NCBI GenBank assembly: GCA_964519725.1
Contig: CAZFKS010000001.1
Coordinates: 49,406-113,405 of the forward strand
DNA from: an uncultured Gammaproteobacteria bacterium
GTDB taxonomy: Bacteria; Patescibacteriota; Patescibacteriia; Magasanikbacterales; UBA922
Length of the DNA: 64,000 bases
Reading direction: 5' to 3'
The translations under genes and the position numbers were made by a program. Below the pieces are notes generated by a model. It had not been told where the DNA came from. It worked only from the letters and a program-made list of their open reading frames with translations, and did no database searches. Within the stretch, counting starts at the first letter, position 1. Every line of letters begins with the position of its first letter. Positions 18,029-52,335 of the stretch are shown here, piece after piece.

Positions 18029-18544
18029 ATGGAAACTCCTGCTGTAACTAGTGGTGATCGTACTCGGTACATTGCCGCTGGTGTAGGAATTATTATTTTA
18101 GCGGCAATTACAGCCATGGCGTTTAGTAATAAAGACGATGAACAAAAATCTGCTGACTCTGCGCCCACCAATACTACAGCTGAAGTAACCACTTCAACCA
18201 CGACGCCAAACACAACCACAGTGGATACGGGCGATAAAACCACCAATGTTAAAGCTAAACCAAAAACTGCCAAACCATTTGCTAGTTACCAAAAAGCTTT
18301 AGAAAGTTATCAATATAAATTCCAATTTGTTAATTGCACCGCAGTCCCAGCCAAGCTCACCTTTAAACAAGGTGTAAAAGTAATGTTAGACAACCGCGAT
18401 GCAGTTGCCCGCACCATTGGGATTGGTAACACCAAATATACCATTCAAGCTTACGACTTTGTCATTGCCACGGCTCCAGCCGCTGGTAATTATGCCCTCA
18501 CTTGCGCTGGCCGCACAGTGGGTGAAGTTAAAACCCAAAAATAG
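18029..18544 (+). CDS. membrane-anchored Thr-rich hypothetical protein
   Basis: ORF from ATG 18029 (upstream part of 17951 ORF overlaps tRNA-Gly); TM segment then T-rich linker. Confidence 0.35.
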   Translation: METPAVTSGDRTRYIAAGVGIIILAAITAMAFSNKDDEQKSADSAPTNTTAEVTTSTTTPNTTTVDTGDKTTNVKAKPKTAKPFASYQKALESYQYKFQFVNCTAVPAKLTFKQGVKVMLDNRDAVARTIGIGNTKYTIQAYDFVIATAPAAGNYALTCAGRTVGEVKTQK

Positions 18545-18545
18545 G

Positions 18546-18574
18546 TTGACTTAGACTTTTTCTAGAGCTACAAT
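18546..18574 (+). promoter_or_regulatory. promoter TTGACT-17-TACAAT for tRNA-Thr
   Basis: read directly; -10 ends 12 nt before tRNA 5' end. Confidence 0.5.
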
Positions 18575-18586
18575 AATCCGGCTTAG

Positions 18587-18659
18587 GCCGGTGTAGCTCA
18601 GTTGGTAGAGCGGCACATTCGTAACGTGCAGGCCACCAGTTCAATCCTGGTCATCGGCT
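18587..18659 (+). tRNA. tRNA-Thr(CGU)
   Basis: manual cloverleaf: acceptor GCCGGTG/CATCGGC (G5:U), D-stem GCTC/GAGC, anticodon loop TTCGTAA, T-arm ACCAG-TTCAATC-CTGGT. Confidence 0.8.
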
Positions 18660-18663
18660 CAGA

Positions 18664-18689
18664 AAAACACCCACTCGGGTGTTTTTTGC
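18664..18689 (+). terminator. rho-independent terminator ACACCCACTCGGGTGTTTTTT
   Basis: hairpin plus T-run read directly. Confidence 0.6.
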
Positions 18690-18693
18690 TGGG

Positions 18694-18722
18694 TTGACTT
18701 TTTCTTTCTACTATGGTATATT
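18694..18722 (+). promoter_or_regulatory. promoter TTGACT-17-TATATT driving the high-GC lipoprotein gene
   Basis: read directly; AT-rich native-like promoter, GGAG RBS 8 nt before ATG 18806. Confidence 0.5.
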
Positions 18723-18805
18723 GTTTTGTCCTGAACCAGCTTCTGTGAACTTTTATAAGTTTAGAGGAGCTGGGTCAGACCGAGCACAACCATTGGAGTC
18801 ATTCC

Positions 18806-19246
18806 ATGTACCGTTCCGTGCTCGTCGTTCTGTTCACCGTTCTCTCCACTTCCTGCACCACGACCCAGGTCGTCACCGACCCGCCGGCGCCCGCCTACGT
18901 CCGCGACCCGCGGCTCGGAGGCGACCCCGAGGCCCCGGAACCCGAAGTACTGAAGATCTTGGTGGAGCAGTTGAGCTCCGTTCCGGGCCTCTACCTCTTC
19001 AACCCGAAGAAGGGTGAGCTCGCCCCCGTGGAAAACGGCTACATCTACCGCTCGAAGGCGCACGTGATCACGACGATCACGGACCTGAGCGGAGAGTGGT
19101 ACTGCCAAGCCCGGGTGAGCTACTGGTTCACGAAGGACCAGACGAAGCGGTACTACTACCGCCTGAAGGGCTTCTCCATCAACGGCGGTGAGCCGTGCAG
19201 CCTGGAGCTACTCCTGAAGGACGAAGACCTGTCACCGCCCGACTAA
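18806..19246 (+). CDS. high-GC (~65%) secreted/lipoprotein-like hypothetical protein
   Basis: signal peptide MYRSVLVVLFTVLSTSC; GC3-rich codon usage unlike every neighbouring gene; alternative frames 18679..19017 and minus 18761..19108 are GC-frame artefacts. Confidence 0.45.
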   Translation: MYRSVLVVLFTVLSTSCTTTQVVTDPPAPAYVRDPRLGGDPEAPEPEVLKILVEQLSSVPGLYLFNPKKGELAPVENGYIYRSKAHVITTITDLSGEWYCQARVSYWFTKDQTKRYYYRLKGFSINGGEPCSLELLLKDEDLSPPD

Positions 19247-19293
19247 TGTCGCTCGTGAGTCGAGGCGACGCCGGCGCGGAGAACGAACACGAA

Positions 19294-19365
19294 AACCCGT
19301 TCGCCCGCCTGCTCTTAATCTAAATTTGGATTCAGAGCAGGAGGAAAAGCGAACGGGTTTTTTGT
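19294..19365 (+). terminator. large compound hairpin terminator (AACCCGTTCGC...GCGAACGGGTT + T-run)
   Basis: 11-bp outer stem with inner 8-bp stem, followed by TTTTTTG. Confidence 0.6.
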
Positions 19366-19484
19366 TTACGACTTAATATTAAGTCGATTTTTTATCTCAA
19401 TCTAAACAAAAATAAACTTTAAAATAATTAATATTTTCTTGAGGAAAATTTAAGCTGTACTTTGTTACTATTAATTTGGTGGAA

Positions 19485-31853: not shown

Positions 31854-33068
31854 ATGTTACCCAAGCCACCAGCGCGCCCAAAGTCTAGGAAATTCATTTA
31901 CCTGGACCACGCGGCCGCGACCCCCACTGCCACAGAAGTTGTCAAAGCCATGACCCCATTTTGGAGTCAGTCTTTTGCTAATCCGTCAGCTTTGTATGCC
32001 GCGGGTGTGGCGAGCCGTGAGGCGGTTGAAGCCGCGCGGGAAGTAGTGGCTGAGACTCTCAAAACTCAAGCGCGGAATATTATTTTTACGAGTGGCGGCA
32101 CTGAAGCCAATAATTTAGGTATTGTTGGATTAATTACTGAACTGAAAAAAATTCACAAAAAGTTACACATCATTACCACCGCCATTGAACATCATTCGGT
32201 TTTAAATCCAATTAAAGCCTTGGCCAAAACTGGCGTGAGCGTAACGTATTTACCAGTGAATGCACAGGGTGAAATTTCGGTAAAAGAATTAGTGAAAGCA
32301 ATTCGTCCAGACACGGCACTTATTTCAGTCATGTACGCGAACAATGAAATTGGAACCATTAATCCAATTGCGGAAATTGGCCGTGAACTTTTAAAATATC
32401 GCAAAGCACATGGCACACAATGGCCATATTTCCACACTGACGCGTGTCAGGCCACTGGTACTTTGGATTTGTCAGTGGAAAAATTGCACGTTGATTTACT
32501 AACTTTAAATGGCAGTAAAATTTACGGACCAAAAGGCAGTGGCGCCCTGTTTGCGCGCGCGGGCGTGCCTTTGTCACCAATTATGTTTGGTGGTGATCAA
32601 GAAAAAACTTTGCGCAGTGGCACAGAAAATGTGCCCGCGATTGTTGGCTTAGCCAAAGCGTTAGAATTAGTAAATAAAAATAAAATAAAAGAAGCAGCGC
32701 GCGAAGCAAAATTGCGTGATTTTTTTTGGGAAAATATTTCCAAAAAAATTCCTGGCGTTTTATTAAATGGACCAACTGAACGTTTGGCTAATAATTTAAA
32801 TGTTTGTTTTCCGGGTTTGGAAGGGGAGACACTGGCGATTTATTTAGATGCGTACGGAATTGCTTGTGCGACTGGTTCAGCCTGCGCCACAGACCAAGAC
32901 GATGCGTCACACGTGTTAATTGCTTGTGGGCGCAGTGGTGACGAAGCTAAAGCCAGTTTGCGTTTTTCATTGGGTCGTAGCACCACTAAACAAGATTTGG
33001 ATTTTGTTTTAAAATATTTACCTGACCTAGTTAAAACTTTGCGGGCCAGTGCAGCCATTAAAAAATAA
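31854..33068 (+). CDS. cysteine desulfurase (NifS/IscS-like, aminotransferase class V)
   Basis: YLDHAAATP N-terminus, SGHK-type Lys region; start ATG 31854. Confidence 0.8.
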   Translation: MLPKPPARPKSRKFIYLDHAAATPTATEVVKAMTPFWSQSFANPSALYAAGVASREAVEAAREVVAETLKTQARNIIFTSGGTEANNLGIVGLITELKKIHKKLHIITTAIEHHSVLNPIKALAKTGVSVTYLPVNAQGEISVKELVKAIRPDTALISVMYANNEIGTINPIAEIGRELLKYRKAHGTQWPYFHTDACQATGTLDLSVEKLHVDLLTLNGSKIYGPKGSGALFARAGVPLSPIMFGGDQEKTLRSGTENVPAIVGLAKALELVNKNKIKEAAREAKLRDFFWENISKKIPGVLLNGPTERLANNLNVCFPGLEGETLAIYLDAYGIACATGSACATDQDDASHVLIACGRSGDEAKASLRFSLGRSTTKQDLDFVLKYLPDLVKTLRASAAIKK

Positions 33069-33069
33069 A

Positions 33070-33133
33070 CTAAAAACCACCCGCCTCCACGCCTGAAGAG
33101 AATAATTCTCAGCAGACGCAGTGTCGGGTGGTT
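33070..33133 (+). repeat. 64-bp direct repeat copy 1 (internal hairpin with AACCACCCG/CGGGTGGTT ends and central GAGAATAATTCTC palindrome)
   Basis: 63/64 identical to copy 2; begins 1 nt after cysteine desulfurase stop. Confidence 0.8.
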
Positions 33134-33176
33134 GAGGAGGAACCAGTTGGGAGTACCCAACACTACGGCCCCTAAC

Positions 33177-33428
33177 CTAGGCGCGCACCTCCTCGCCAGT
33201 ACCTGGCAACTCTAGGAGCCACTGGAAGAATCCGATCAACCCCTGCAGAACTGCACGGATCTTTTCGGCCAGGACATACGCCTGGATGACGATTCCAGCG
33301 CCCAGGATTACTCCAAAGAGACAAGAACCCTCCACCAAGAGATCAGCTCCGAAGAGCAGCGCCCCGAGTGGTGGAGGCAGACGATCAATGAGATCTTGCA
33401 TACTTGCTCTATATATCATTTCAAGCAA
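33177..33428 (-). CDS. GC-rich small hydrophobic ORF (83 aa) inside repeat-bounded cassette
   Basis: ORF with upstream TTGACA -35 on minus strand; ~58% GC; coding status uncertain. Confidence 0.25.
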   Translation of the reverse strand: MLEMIYRASMQDLIDRLPPPLGALLFGADLLVEGSCLFGVILGAGIVIQAYVLAEKIRAVLQGLIGFFQWLLELPGTGEEVRA

Positions 33429-33447
33429 TTTGTCAATATTTACCTAA

Positions 33448-33511
33448 CTAAAAACCACCCGCCTCCACGCCTGAAGAGAATAATTCTCTGCAGACGCAGT
33501 GTCGGGTGGTT
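33448..33511 (+). repeat. 64-bp direct repeat copy 2
   Basis: single A/T difference from copy 1 at position 41. Confidence 0.8.
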
Positions 33512-33561
33512 CCCAGCACCACGGTCGCGGTGCGACTACTTAGCCTGGACCAGGCGCGTGC

Positions 33562-33663
33562 ACTCACGTTCGACCTCCGCGAGGAGGCTTTGAAAAGAGG
33601 TTAGATCCGTGATCACAAGCTTCACGTAGTGGTACATGGGGTCCTCCTGCCGAATGGTGTCGG
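33562..33663 (-). CDS. GC-rich mini-ORF (33 aa) with strong AGGAGG RBS
   Basis: MYHYVKLVITDLTSFQSLLAEVERECTRLVQAK read on minus strand; speculative. Confidence 0.2.
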
Positions 33664-35805: not shown

Positions 35806-36136
35806 TATGTTCCACGACATATCTTTGCCTATAACAACGTTGTAAGCAAAGTGTGTGCCGTGGAACCTCCTTTCAGGTGCGTGGCACGCTCACCTGGGCG
35901 GGTTGGTGGAGAACACAACAGTCATCGTGACCGTCGTCTCCGGTGGGAGCTTGGCGATCTGGCCTTCAAGAAGGCCTTTCACCATGCTCACTACGGGATC
36001 GACTGCTTCTGCAGTCGAAGGGATTTCGCGCCGATCCTGGTTAGTATGCTCGCCGTAGGTGACGAGCGTACCATCAGTCTGGCGCGAAACACTAAATGAT
36101 ACTCGCATGGCCCCAAAATACCTGTTTCTAAAAAAT

Positions 36137-39594: not shown

Positions 39595-39675
39595 TTTACC
39601 TTGATTTTTTATTATAAATAAGCTAAATTAAGCGCGCTTTGACAGCGTTTACCAAGGGGGTGAGCGACTTGTCGA

Positions 39676-40569
39676 ATGGGGGTATACATGAATCTCACAG
39701 TCGCGCCGACCGCCATTAAGGCGGTCAACGAAGCGCTCGAACACAACGACCGAGTGGGCTGGAAGCCCGCGCTCGGCCTCGTGCTCGGCACGGGCCTCGG
39801 CAAGGTTGCCGAGCTCGTCGAAGATCCCATCAAACTGCCTTTCAGCAAGCTGTGGCCCGAGGTCACCAGCAAACTGGAGGGGCACGCCAAGGAGCTCATT
39901 CTCGGCGACATCGGGGGTCTCCCGGTCGCGGTCTTCTCCGGACGGATCCACGGCTACGAGGGGTACGAGCCGAACGTCGTGGTTCAGCCGGTACTGCTCG
40001 CGCAGGCGCTCGCCGCCGAGAGCATCGTGCTGACGAACGCGGCCGGCGCCCTGAACACTGACCTGGCCAAGGGCCAGATCCTCGTGCTCAGCGATCATAT
40101 CAACCTCACCGGGCGCTCGCCGCTCAAGGGCCCGAACAACGAGGCCCTGGGCACGCGCTTCCCGGGACAGGGGGCCATCTACGGCCGCCACAAGGACCTG
40201 ACGGCCCGCGTCATGAGCGAGTTCAAGGCCACAGTCCTCAAATCGGGACAGATCGAGCCGCGCAACGGCGTCTATCTCGGGGTCAACGGCCCTGAATTCG
40301 AGACCCCGGCTGAGGTCAAGATGATGCGCGGCCTCGGCGCCGACGTCGTCGGCATGTCGACGGTCCACGAGGCCATCACGGCCAACTGGCTCGGCCTCGG
40401 CGTCATCGGCCTCAGTCTGGTGACCAATGCCACGGGCACGGCCCACGAAGAAGGCGAGATCTCGCACGCCGAAGTGCAGGAAGCCGGCCGAGAAGCTGGT
40501 CCTCGTCTCGTGAAGTTCACGAAGCTCCTTCTGGAGGCGTACCGCAAGGACGTCTTCAAGAAGAGCTGA
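39676..40569 (+). CDS. purine nucleoside phosphorylase (PNP/MTAP family), encoded in a ~65% GC island
   Basis: GTGLG P-loop-like, LTNAAG, VGMSTVHE motifs of PNP family 2; the 454-aa antisense ORF 39649..41013 is a GC-frame artefact. Confidence 0.7.
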   Translation: MGVYMNLTVAPTAIKAVNEALEHNDRVGWKPALGLVLGTGLGKVAELVEDPIKLPFSKLWPEVTSKLEGHAKELILGDIGGLPVAVFSGRIHGYEGYEPNVVVQPVLLAQALAAESIVLTNAAGALNTDLAKGQILVLSDHINLTGRSPLKGPNNEALGTRFPGQGAIYGRHKDLTARVMSEFKATVLKSGQIEPRNGVYLGVNGPEFETPAEVKMMRGLGADVVGMSTVHEAITANWLGLGVIGLSLVTNATGTAHEEGEISHAEVQEAGREAGPRLVKFTKLLLEAYRKDVFKKS

Positions 40570-40718
40570 AGGGCCGCTGTCTGTGCGCCCATCGCCCCTC
40601 CTCTCTGGGAGCGCCCGCGCGCTCCCACCCCAATCCTTTCTCTCCGCCCGCCAGGGTGGAGTTTTATTTAGGGTTTTACTTTTTCTAAAATGTGGTATTA
40701 TTGAGCTAATTATTTTAT

Positions 40719-50908: not shown

Positions 50909-52153
50909 ATGAAAATGCCTGTTTCTGAAGCCAAAGCCATTGTTCACATTGATGGCGATGCTTTCTTTGCTAGTTGCGAACAAGCTGTTAACCCAAAACT
51001 TCAGGGCAAACCAGTAGTTGTTGGGGCTGACCGTGGCATTGCCACTGCTTTTAGCCAAGAAGCCAAGCAGCGTGGGGTGCGTCGCGGCATGACTAAACTT
51101 GAAATCCTCAGGATTTGTCCAGACGCTATCTTACTTCCCGGTGATTATGAAACTTACACCTTATTTTCCAAACGCATATTTGCGATCATGCGCCGATTTA
51201 CTGACCAAGTTGAAGAGTACAGCATTGACGAAGGCTTCATGGATATTACAGGGTTAGATAAAGTAGAAAAAATGTCTTACGCTGACATTGCCAAATTAAT
51301 TAAAAAAACCATTCAAACTGAATTAGGGATCACAGTCTCAGTTGGTCTTGCCCCAACCAAAGTCTTAGCCAAACTCGCCTCAACTAGTAGTAAACCAAAT
51401 GGCTTTGGTGTAATTACCCAAAAAGATTTACCTGAATATTTGCGCGATTTTTCTGTGGACACTATCTGGGGCGTAGGCCGGAACACGGCCGACTATATGC
51501 GCCGCCTTAGTATTTTTACAGCCTATGACTTTGCGGTTAAACCAATTGGGTTTATCAAAGATAATTTTACCAAACCACACCAAGACATTTGGTATGAATT
51601 AAATGGTCAATCAGTGTACAGTGTAATTTCTGAAGAAAAACAAACCTATGCTTCAATTTCTAAAACTCACACTTTTCACGCTCAAAAGGGGAGCCGGGCG
51701 TTGGTATATGCCGAACTAGTCACTAATCTAGAAAATGCTTGTGCCAAAGCACGTAATCATGATTTAGTGGCCAAACGAGTGTCTATTTTCTTAAAATCTG
51801 AATCATTTAATATTCAAGGACTCGAAGTAACTTTAGAACGCGCCAGTGCTTTTCCAATGGATCTATTAAGTGCGGTTAAGCCATTATTTGAAAAATTATA
51901 CAGTGATAAAGTTCAGTACCGTGCCACTGGCATTGTTTTATCTGACCTCACCGATGCTTGCGCTGTTCAAACGACTTTGTTTGAAGCCCCAACCACACTT
52001 TCCACCTTACAAAAAACTTACGAAGCCATTGATGCTCTTGCCCTCAAATTTGGCAAACACACGGTGCATAGTGCCAGTAGTTTAGCCAAAGAAATTAAAA
52101 AACCAATGGAACTAGCTAGTTTGCCATTGGTTTCCCTAGGATTTGTTCGTTAG
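50909..52153 (+). CDS. dinB: DNA polymerase IV (Y-family)
   Basis: IVHIDGDAFFASCEQ N-terminus; overlaps lexA stop. Confidence 0.8.
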   Translation: MKMPVSEAKAIVHIDGDAFFASCEQAVNPKLQGKPVVVGADRGIATAFSQEAKQRGVRRGMTKLEILRICPDAILLPGDYETYTLFSKRIFAIMRRFTDQVEEYSIDEGFMDITGLDKVEKMSYADIAKLIKKTIQTELGITVSVGLAPTKVLAKLASTSSKPNGFGVITQKDLPEYLRDFSVDTIWGVGRNTADYMRRLSIFTAYDFAVKPIGFIKDNFTKPHQDIWYELNGQSVYSVISEEKQTYASISKTHTFHAQKGSRALVYAELVTNLENACAKARNHDLVAKRVSIFLKSESFNIQGLEVTLERASAFPMDLLSAVKPLFEKLYSDKVQYRATGIVLSDLTDACAVQTTLFEAPTTLSTLQKTYEAIDALALKFGKHTVHSASSLAKEIKKPMELASLPLVSLGFVR

Positions 52154-52154
52154 C

Positions 52155-52335
52155 TTGAGAGGGGTTGTGCAGCAGGACCCCTCAGAAGAGGAGGGTGTCG
52201 AAAGACTGGCCCGGGAACGCCGTATCCCGGCTCCAAGACCGTACCGGTCAGTCTGAGGGGGGATTGAGATATTCAACTGACTAGCGCGGTCTGTATTCTA
52301 TCGGCATATCCAAGGGGTCCTGCCGCACAAAAGCA
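52155..52335 (+). ncRNA. GC-rich (~58%) structured element: 18-bp closing helix (52165-52182 / 52313-52330, one A.C mismatch) enclosing 129 nt with a 9-bp inner helix and hairpins
   Basis: base pairing read directly; no ORF; family unknown. Confidence 0.35.

Follow-up and report, generated by a model that had tools for sequence, protein, structure and literature searches.

Background

Phage morons, of which gene 15 of HK97 is an example (PMC3594210), are defined by a promoter-gene-terminator build, by a deviant GC content and by their residence in phage genomes, where they appear as additional DNA that separates neighboring genes of relatives; they often encode a small membrane protein or lipoprotein. 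Other ways of gaining genes in small units have been described in groundwater Patescibacteria (members of the Candidate Phyla Radiation, or CPR), where hundreds of islands and individually transferred genes were found (PMC12455944). The method used in that study needed the donor to be present in the data set, and most of the transfers that it found were between Patescibacteria; earlier reports cited there indicate that membrane-associated genes feature in Patescibacteria/DPANN exchange. Here we describe a high-GC islet in a 64-kb stretch of a Candidatus Magasanikbacteria chromosome (contig CAZFKS010000001.1; the whole stretch of 64,000 nucleotides that was analyzed is called the window throughout). 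The islet lies between the genes for tRNA-Thr and FtsE and carries a single open reading frame (ORF) for a predicted lipoprotein of 146 aa. Our main conclusion is that it was probably acquired horizontally, as a self-contained, moron-like expression unit of one gene.

Phage morons come closest to the islet in their working: the islet has its own promoter match and its own terminator, its GC content is deviant, it separates two genes that lie side by side in relatives, and its gene is of the small membrane or lipoprotein type that morons often carry. It departs from them, however, in the very trait that makes them phage genes, as it sits between conserved chromosomal genes of a CPR bacterium and not in a phage or prophage; its product has no match in PHROGs, and neither the DNA of positions 18500-19700 (megablast) nor the protein (tblastn) has a match in phage records. 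With tRNA-linked genomic islands it shares a deviant GC content and codon usage and a position on the 3' side of a tRNA gene, but it measures about 0.55 kb and holds one gene, compared to 10 to 200 kb for such islands, it lacks a direct repeat of the tRNA 3' end, and no integrase is found among the ORFs scanned with Pfam between 13.8 and 26.3 kb, which is the scope of all our statements on mobility genes.

The transfers reported in PMC12455944 concern the same phylum-level host group and, like the islet, include single genes gained by streamlined CPR genomes; unlike them, the islet has a donor that is apparently unsampled, a composition that is far from Patescibacteria-like and a product without relatives. 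Integron cassettes resemble it in their compact single ORF followed by a long imperfect palindrome, and several unrelated cassettes do occur in related genomes (see below). Yet each of our units has its own promoter, the units are scattered and not arrayed, no integron integrase lies nearby, and no attC-type core or boundary motif is common to the seven cassettes that were compared. The 3' palindrome of the islet is an ordinary terminator-like hairpin which, by eye, does not fit the attC core consensus. All things considered, we class the islet with the horizontal acquisitions of single genes, a kind of event that is known in Patescibacteria.

Results

Composition and coding signal of the islet

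The host, an ultra-small bacterium of Candidatus Magasanikbacteria (CPR/Patescibacteria), is GC-poor. A first-pass annotation of the window, made from the sequence, had proposed a high-GC island next to tRNA-Thr, and the composition bears this out: the core at 18768-19307 (540 nt) has a GC content of 62.8%, compared to a mean of 42.6% (standard deviation 3.1%, maximum 55.0%) over all other 540-nt windows once this island and a second one, described below, are excluded (z = 6.6). A uniform GC content on recalculation would have spoken against the proposal; in 200-nt windows the GC fraction is instead 0.46-0.52 before the islet, 0.61-0.65 across 18800-19299, and 0.33 after it, with values of about 0.40-0.49 prevailing to either side. 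The extent had been given as 18694-19367. The signals of the gene do reach these limits, but the foreign composition is confined to about 18768-19310; the AT richness typical of the host is seen in the promoter and on the outer side of the terminator. The foreign DNA thus amounts to about 0.55 kb and one gene, or 0.67 kb if the signals are counted.

The ORF has GC fractions of 0.59, 0.42 and 0.88 at first, second and third codon positions (GC1, GC2 and GC3), and its GC3 is 0.84-0.92 in every third of its length. Among long ORFs of the window (68 in all) the median GC3 is 0.38, the 66 that lie outside both islands span 0.25-0.55, and the relative synonymous codon usage (RSCU) of the ORF correlates with that of host genes at -0.12. 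The GC3 bias noted in the first-pass annotation is therefore confirmed, but the ORF is not the sole outlier that it was taken for, a second high-GC gene being present at 39676..40569. An excess of GC at third positions together with an ordinary GC2 is the mark of a real gene, and of neither random GC-rich DNA nor an RNA gene: the 146-aa ORF is a protein-coding gene that was shaped under a high-GC mutational regime.

An extra segment in a variable spacer

To place the islet in its context, 40 related loci were collected by a scan with FtsX, keeping one genome per species; most are labelled Candidatus Magasanikbacteria, and in the nearest relative (locus L003) FtsX is 77% identical. The order tRNA-Gly(CCC), one gene, tRNA-Thr(CGU), ftsE, ftsX, tRNA-Gln is conserved. 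A tRNA-Thr gene lies upstream of ftsE in 20 of the related loci, and in at least 13 of these 20 the distance between the two is 200 nt or less, without any ORF, compared to 1050 nt in the window. The short spacers hold only a terminator and an extended -10 promoter; the extended -10 promoter of ftsE (TGTTATACT) is retained in the window at about 19690. Neither blastn nor tblastx detected a match of the 1050-nt spacer to any of the 40 loci.

Inserts of other kinds occupy the same place in several relatives. The spacer of the nearest relative contains an ORF of 582 aa with native GC content, apparently an ABC transporter, judging by its appearance rather than by a family scan; a second relative has an ORF of 174 aa, and a third (L017) about 800 nt of GC-enriched DNA. 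In L028, the spacer contains an ORF of 104 aa on the opposite strand, with a GC3 of 0.79, its own TTGACA-17-TACAAT promoter, a GGAGG motif and a GC-rich terminator. The gap between tRNA-Thr and ftsE is hence better described as a variable spacer that carries different inserts in different relatives.

An islet with its own expression signals

The elements that the first-pass annotation had read around the gene were all located (Table 1): a position immediately after tRNA-Thr and its terminator, a native-looking AT-rich promoter, a GGAG ribosome-binding site, and a compound terminator of unusual length. Around the islet, the consensus scan found seven promoter sites where 2.5 +/- 1.6 were expected. 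The promoter of the islet resembles that of tRNA-Thr at 18546-18574 (GGTTGACTT..., repeat D4), and we infer that it is functional. None of 200 shuffled sequences folded as stably as the leader stem-loop that follows it. A comparable leader hairpin precedes the gene of the second island, and others were seen by eye, on reading the sequence, in cassettes of two relatives (L012 and L018b); a role in stabilizing the messenger may be proposed for such hairpins. Downstream of the ORF, the GC fraction is 0.67 across 19247-19310, with a small hairpin at 19248-19269. The terminator consists of an outer stem (AAAACCCGUUCGC/GCGAACGGGUUUU) and an inner stem (CCUGCUCU.../...AGAGCAGG), corresponding to inverted repeats I2 and I5, and a second, small terminator-like hairpin is found at 19369-19386.

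A predicted lipoprotein without relatives

The protein begins in the manner of bacterial lipoproteins, the substrates of signal peptidase II: the N-terminus (MYRSVLVVLFTVLSTS-C) has a basic residue, Arg3, and an uncharged hydrophobic core, and ends in ...LSTS-C, with the predicted signal peptide spanning residues 1-16 and the lipobox cysteine at residue 17. The match to the lipoprotein pattern, which is of the PROSITE type, is VVLFTVLSTSC, in keeping with the lipoprotein-like N-terminus claimed in the first-pass annotation. At position -3 of the lipobox the residue is an atypical Ser, where Leu is usual. A linker rich in Pro, Asp and Glu follows up to about residue 46, and the remainder would form a small alpha+beta domain of about 100 aa with two further cysteines. 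AlphaFold2 gave one helix and five to seven strands, at a predicted local distance difference test (pLDDT) score of 42 for the full protein and of 62 for residues 45-146; a weak internal repeat (YIYRSK / YYYRLK, D2) is seen in the domain. The likeness to characterized lipoproteins extends neither to sequence nor to fold, and Foldseek found no fold match in the PDB for the models. Three host ORFs of the window (24094, 43799 and 45956) also have lipobox-type N-termini, so the host appears to use lipoproteins.

The first-pass annotation had expected the best BLASTP hits of the protein to lie in high-GC taxa; no matches whatever were obtained. A word-indexed search of 5.8 billion protein clusters returned only the protein itself. 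An exhaustive phmmer search of 1.84 billion representatives returned the protein and one match at E = 9e-4, a 1653-aa, eukaryotic FLYWCH/zinc-finger repeat-like protein (P0123), which was judged spurious because repeats inflate the score and because the Cys/His pattern is not shared. Nothing was found for it in Pfam, NCBIfam, PHROGs, PADLOC or the sequences of the PDB, and tblastn against phage records, plasmid records and IMG/VR gave no relative.

Phage-receptor blocking is attributed to many small moron-encoded lipoproteins, and Llp of T5 is a small phage-encoded exclusion lipoprotein. The protein probably has a role at the surface, for example in contact with a partner cell or in the blocking of phage receptors, but this is a guess, drawn from the small membrane proteins and lipoproteins that morons encode (PMC3594210; T5 Llp).

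Taken together, these features suggest how the islet may operate. About 540 bp, comprising the ORF with some 40 nt upstream and 65 nt downstream, would have kept the composition of a donor of about 65% GC. Transcription would start a few bases past the host-type promoter at 18694-18722, the leader of the messenger would fold into the long 5' stem-loop, which likely stabilizes it, and the GGAG located 7 nt before the AUG would bring in the ribosome; the hairpin and U-run at 19285-19367 would end transcription ahead of the next units. The 146-aa prolipoprotein would be exported by the Sec pathway, lipidated at Cys17 and cleaved by signal peptidase II, leaving a mature protein of 130 aa on the outer face of the membrane, where the proline- and acid-rich linker would act as a tether bearing at its end the alpha+beta domain of about 100 aa with its two cysteines. 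Export and lipidation are predicted here from the N-terminal sequence.

High-GC single-gene cassettes recur in the clade

The second single-gene island of the window encodes a purine nucleoside phosphorylase (PNP). Its ORF (39676/39688..40569, + strand) has GC1, GC2 and GC3 of 0.68, 0.42 and 0.86, and matches the Pfam family PNP_UDP_1 with E = 1.9e-37; it is flanked by genes for an iron-sulfur assembly protein and a ferredoxin. Homologues number in the thousands, yet the best of them reach only 42-49% identity, and the few that are named belong to Chloroflexota/Limnocylindrales. In RSCU it correlates with the 146-aa ORF at r = 0.78, compared to -0.06 and -0.12 for the two genes, respectively, with host genes. 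It is apparently a nucleoside-salvage enzyme that was acquired by the CPR bacterium.

We then asked of the related loci for single ORFs whose GC3 exceeds the GC content of the locus by at least 0.30. Such ORFs are present in L010, in L012 (between ftsX and tRNA-Gln), in L018 (three ORFs) and in L034. Together with that of the L028 spacer, they have GC3 values of 0.75-0.90, in Magasanikbacteria genomes of 35-47% GC. A common build, made of an AT-rich consensus promoter, a jump in GC content near the start codon, a GC-rich 3' untranslated region and a terminator, was read in the DNA of L028, L012, L010, the two later L018 units and the PNP gene of the window. The products themselves are obscure: none of the eight proteins tested matched NCBIfam or PHROGs, and the L028 protein has no relative in the 5.8 billion clusters. 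Apart from A/T-rich runs, no k-mer of 9 nt or more is common to the seven cassettes; integron-like capture was rejected on this lack of a shared boundary motif. As the metagenome-assembled genomes (MAGs) stem from different studies, the recurrent cassette pattern is biological. It agrees with the published account of groundwater Patescibacteria, in which islands and single transferred genes are documented as common (PMC12455944).

Two smaller GC-enriched cassettes, with TTGACA-type promoters identified by reading rather than by a scan, lie at 33068-33637 of the window, a region without Rfam match. One holds an ORF of 74 aa with a membrane-like look (33177-33401, - strand, GC3 0.61) and the other an ORF of 33 aa (33536-33637, - strand, GC3 0.74). 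The first is bracketed by two copies, 98% identical, of a 66-nt hairpin element (33068-33133 and 33446-33511), which is the sole long direct repeat of the window.

The islet is continuous with its flanks in two assemblies

The exact 146-aa protein is present in two sources, the 193-kb NCBI contig and a Logan contig (L001, 2715 bp) assembled from run SRR11567520. The latter reproduces positions 18637..21351 of the window without a single difference, through both borders of the islet, and its ends fall inside the conserved tRNA-Thr and tRNA-Gln genes, away from these borders. Logan-type contigs are assumed to break where the assembly graph branches; breaks inside the two tRNA genes then suggest that the graph does not branch at the borders of the islet. 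An independent Logan contig likewise spans both borders of the PNP island and its flanks. The exact FtsE and the exact 197-aa protein encoded upstream were found in no other sample, and a metagenome scan with the latter returned only two distant loci, so that a variant with an empty site was not found.

Two putative RNAs share the spacer

Downstream of the islet, the spacer contains a tRNA-like RNA gene and a candidate small RNA (Table 1). In the former, G3:U70 forms part of an acceptor stem of 7 bp, the T-arm reads GGGGG-UUCGACU-CCCCC, CCA is encoded, and the anticodon loop of 10 nt (CUUCGUCAAU), which contains UUCGUCAA, is over-long. The G3:U70 pair is the identity pair of alanine tRNAs. The match of the tRNA-like RNA to the Rfam transfer-messenger RNA (tmRNA) family falls short of the gathering score, which is 47 (local E = 3.4e-5), and ARAGORN reports the gene only with -ps80, as 'tRNA-???' with a 4-base anticodon, cgtc. 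It was not found in the 40 related loci, and may or may not be part of the acquired DNA. Its 5' sequence (GGGGCGAG) and its 3' terminal 25-27 nt recur in three phage contigs of IMG/VR (L045, L046 and L047), in mini-RNAs that are shorter (61 nt in L045 and L046) and each placed behind its own TTGACA-17-TATAAT promoter. A scan with a loose pattern gave 83 stretches, nearly all of which were ordinary tRNAs, the only true relatives being those of the three phage contigs.

The candidate small RNA ends with a terminator at 19650-19677 (fold z = -3.0), just upstream of the extended -10 promoter of ftsE. Its 5' end (19606-19622, AUUGACGAAGCUGGUUC) is complementary to the loop region of the tRNA-like RNA at 19507-19523 (17 nt at 88%, including 12 perfect), and also, at 18733-18743, to the ORF's leader hairpin in its left arm (11/11). 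By our own estimate, chance would yield each complementarity less than about once in the 1.4-kb stretch. Both concern the same 17 nt, and the observation is post hoc; they may reflect a regulatory link or chance.

Other features of the window

The features are collected in Table 1. Among the ORFs scanned at 13.8-26.3 kb, Pfam recognized families such as cell-division, PPIase, ABC, GNAT, IMPase and GreA, and no integrase or transposase. At 24680-25092 (+ strand), a group I intron (Rfam RF00028, 77.6 bits, 24667-25038) interrupts the anticodon loop of a tRNA-Asn(GUU) gene (tRNA halves UCGGGGGUAGCUCAGUGGUAGAGCAGUUGGCUGUUA... and ...CCAAUUGGUCAAGGGUUCGAAUCCCUUCCCCCGAGCCA), which is missed by ARAGORN; introns of this group are likewise present near this place in L003 and L004. 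Two further short stretches, at 52111-52334 and 35826-36092, are GC-rich (0.55-0.57), largely located between long ORFs, and have visible hairpin potential. Neither has an Rfam match at the gathering threshold, and 35826-36092 has none at E <= 0.1. Unannotated RNAs, or small cassettes in addition to those above, may be what these stretches represent.

Table 1. Position, strand and supporting evidence of the features of the window, and positions of high-GC ORFs within related loci
Feature	Position	Strand	Evidence or remark
tRNA-Thr(CGU), conserved left flank of the variable spacer	18587..18660	+	ARAGORN; Rfam tRNA, 61.8 bits
Intrinsic terminator hairpin of tRNA-Thr, then U-run	18662..18687	+	-13.9 kcal/mol, z = -4.2
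Sigma-70-type promoter match, TTGACT-17-TATATT, with TG of an extended -10	18694..18722	+	Consensus scan, 10/12 positions
Long 5' leader stem-loop at the predicted mRNA 5' end	18722..18786	+	-36.8 kcal/mol, z = -5.0
Shine-Dalgarno motif GGAG	18795..18798	+	7 nt before ATG; direct reading of the sequence
High-GC ORF, predicted prolipoprotein of 146 aa	18806..19246	+	GC pattern; lipobox pattern match
GC-rich 3' untranslated stretch of foreign composition	19247..19284	+	Small hairpin
Long compound intrinsic terminator, U-run at its end	19285..19367	+	-60.4 kcal/mol, z = -6.5
tRNA-like RNA gene, 75 nt	19485..19559	+	Rfam tmRNA, 18.6 bits; ARAGORN at relaxed threshold
Promoter match and candidate small RNA of ~75 nt	19571..19683	+	TTGACA-17-TATATT at 19571-19599, 11/12 positions
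ftsE-ftsX, conserved right flank	19710..21306	+	Pfam ABC_tran (FtsE); FtsX domains, precomputed matches; synteny
Two small GC-enriched cassettes	33068-33637	-	TTGACA-type promoters, by reading
Second single-gene high-GC island, PNP	39622..40697	+	GC 0.636; leader hairpin, own terminator
High-GC ORF in L028	4889-5203	-	
High-GC ORF in L012	7269-7550	+	
High-GC ORF in L010	12288-12698	-	
High-GC ORF in L034	752-1885	-	
First high-GC ORF in L018	290-1153	+	
Second high-GC ORF in L018	8097-8669	+	
Third high-GC ORF in L018	9140-9661	-	

Discussion

Horizontal acquisition and what weighs against it

Horizontal acquisition, as claimed in the first-pass annotation, is upheld by the foreign codon usage of the gene, by its absence from the 40 related loci and by the continuity of the assembly. 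The islet with its gene for a predicted surface lipoprotein is most likely a single-gene acquisition, an ordinary kind of event.

Several observations count against this conclusion. Searches that covered about 15 billion proteins, as well as phage, plasmid and IMG/VR DNA, yielded no donor or homologue, so that the transfer is deduced from composition and synteny only and the donor cannot be named; this absence of a donor sequence, even within the same run, is the main weakness of the transfer. For a gene that is barely ameliorated (GC3 0.88), one would normally expect close relatives in a sampled donor lineage, and even the PNP gene has no homologue above 49% identity. This leaves two options, an unsampled donor lineage or a fast-evolving gene. 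The structure model is of low confidence and finds no fold match. Lastly, no mobility gene was found among the scanned ORFs, nor any att-type (attachment site) repeat or shared boundary motif. Without an integrase among these ORFs, a border repeat, a copy of the tRNA 3' end or a shared motif, att integration and integron capture both lack support as routes of entry.

Alternative origins

The main rival explanation, which we regard as unlikely, derives the gene from an integrative element or prophage that had attached at the 3' end of tRNA-Thr and then decayed, with the gene as the cargo that survived; integrase, att repeats and all other parts would since have been lost from this streamlined genome, and the tRNA-like RNA would be another remnant. 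The gene lies directly beside tRNA-Thr, and two related loci carry, 68 nt downstream of this tRNA, an 18-nt stretch that copies its 3' end exactly (GACTCCCCGAGGTGGCTC; L011, 5061-5078; L017, 4573-4590). These copies look like an att-type scar, a hint which suggests that tRNA-Thr was once an integration site in the clade, and it is on account of this hint that a decayed element is kept as the main rival. The promoter-gene-terminator build and deviant GC content, as defining traits of morons (PMC3594210), would also fit, as would the acceptor stem and T-arm that the tRNA-like RNA shares with the mini-RNAs of three phage contigs. However, only this generic acceptor/T-arm part is shared with the phage RNAs, and the chromosomal genes that flank the islet on both sides are conserved, as is their order. 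A second copy of the last 19 nt of tRNA-Thr is absent from the 64-kb window, also when as many as three mismatches are allowed, and the borders of the islet show no meaningful direct repeat; classical att integration in the window was rejected on these grounds. No integrase, transposase or phage family was detected among the scanned ORFs, as the first-pass annotation had stated for the integrase, and the ORF is without PHROGs match. Of the proposal that the tRNA adjacency betrays horizontal transfer, the adjacency itself thus stands, but not the integration at the tRNA 3' end which it would classically imply.

A wider reading than the acquisition of one gene, and one that we hold to be quite improbable, makes the islet part of a clade-wide stream of barely ameliorated high-GC genes, unrelated to one another and with few known relatives or none, all coming from a single unsampled high-GC partner, such as the host organism of these episymbionts or a virus. 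Such genes would be taken up independently of an integrase (for example by natural transformation) and would settle in variable spacers, several of them beside tRNA genes, under host-type promoters; the gene of the islet would perhaps be wired to the tRNA-like RNA, with its alanine-identity features and 8-nt-type anticodon loop, and to the small RNA. The complementarities of the small RNA described above are what prompted this reading.

It is very improbable that the segment is native, either as a gene or as a non-coding segment, and owes its high GC content to selection on amino-acid content, on mRNA structure or on a structured RNA gene. Where an AT-rich genome has a GC-rich stretch, this is often an RNA gene; the signals on both sides have a fully native look, and the absence of homologues would also fit a lineage-specific gene. 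But the excess of GC resides at third positions (0.88) while GC2 is ordinary (0.42), so it is not driven by amino acids. The three-base periodicity speaks against an RNA gene and there is no Rfam family match beyond chance; an RNA gene was rejected on these two grounds. Moreover, nothing similar occurs at the site in the closest relative or in the 39 others, and a second, unrelated gene of the window has the same codon usage.

Least likely of all is an assembly chimera, or contaminant high-GC DNA misjoined into the contig, which would suit a metagenome-derived sequence known from one sample only but is made very unlikely by the base-for-base agreement of two assemblers across the borders and by the exact framing of the ORF by promoter, ribosome-binding site and terminator, with stems that span the compositional transition; the same design is moreover found in MAGs of unrelated studies, and no other contig encodes a relative, even in the same run.

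Conclusions

If acquired as we propose, the islet offers a clean, sharply bounded case of a streamlined CPR genome gaining one gene, and it would show how foreign coding DNA is trimmed to an ORF and fitted with signals of the host type. The prevailing view of CPR bacteria is that they live attached to other microbes. Should the recurrent high-GC genes have a common source, barely ameliorated genes of about 65% GC would be the compositional fingerprint of a partner of Magasanikbacteria; if this is true, a nucleoside-salvage enzyme and a surface lipoprotein would be among such genes, and these would be candidates for proteins of the contact surface.

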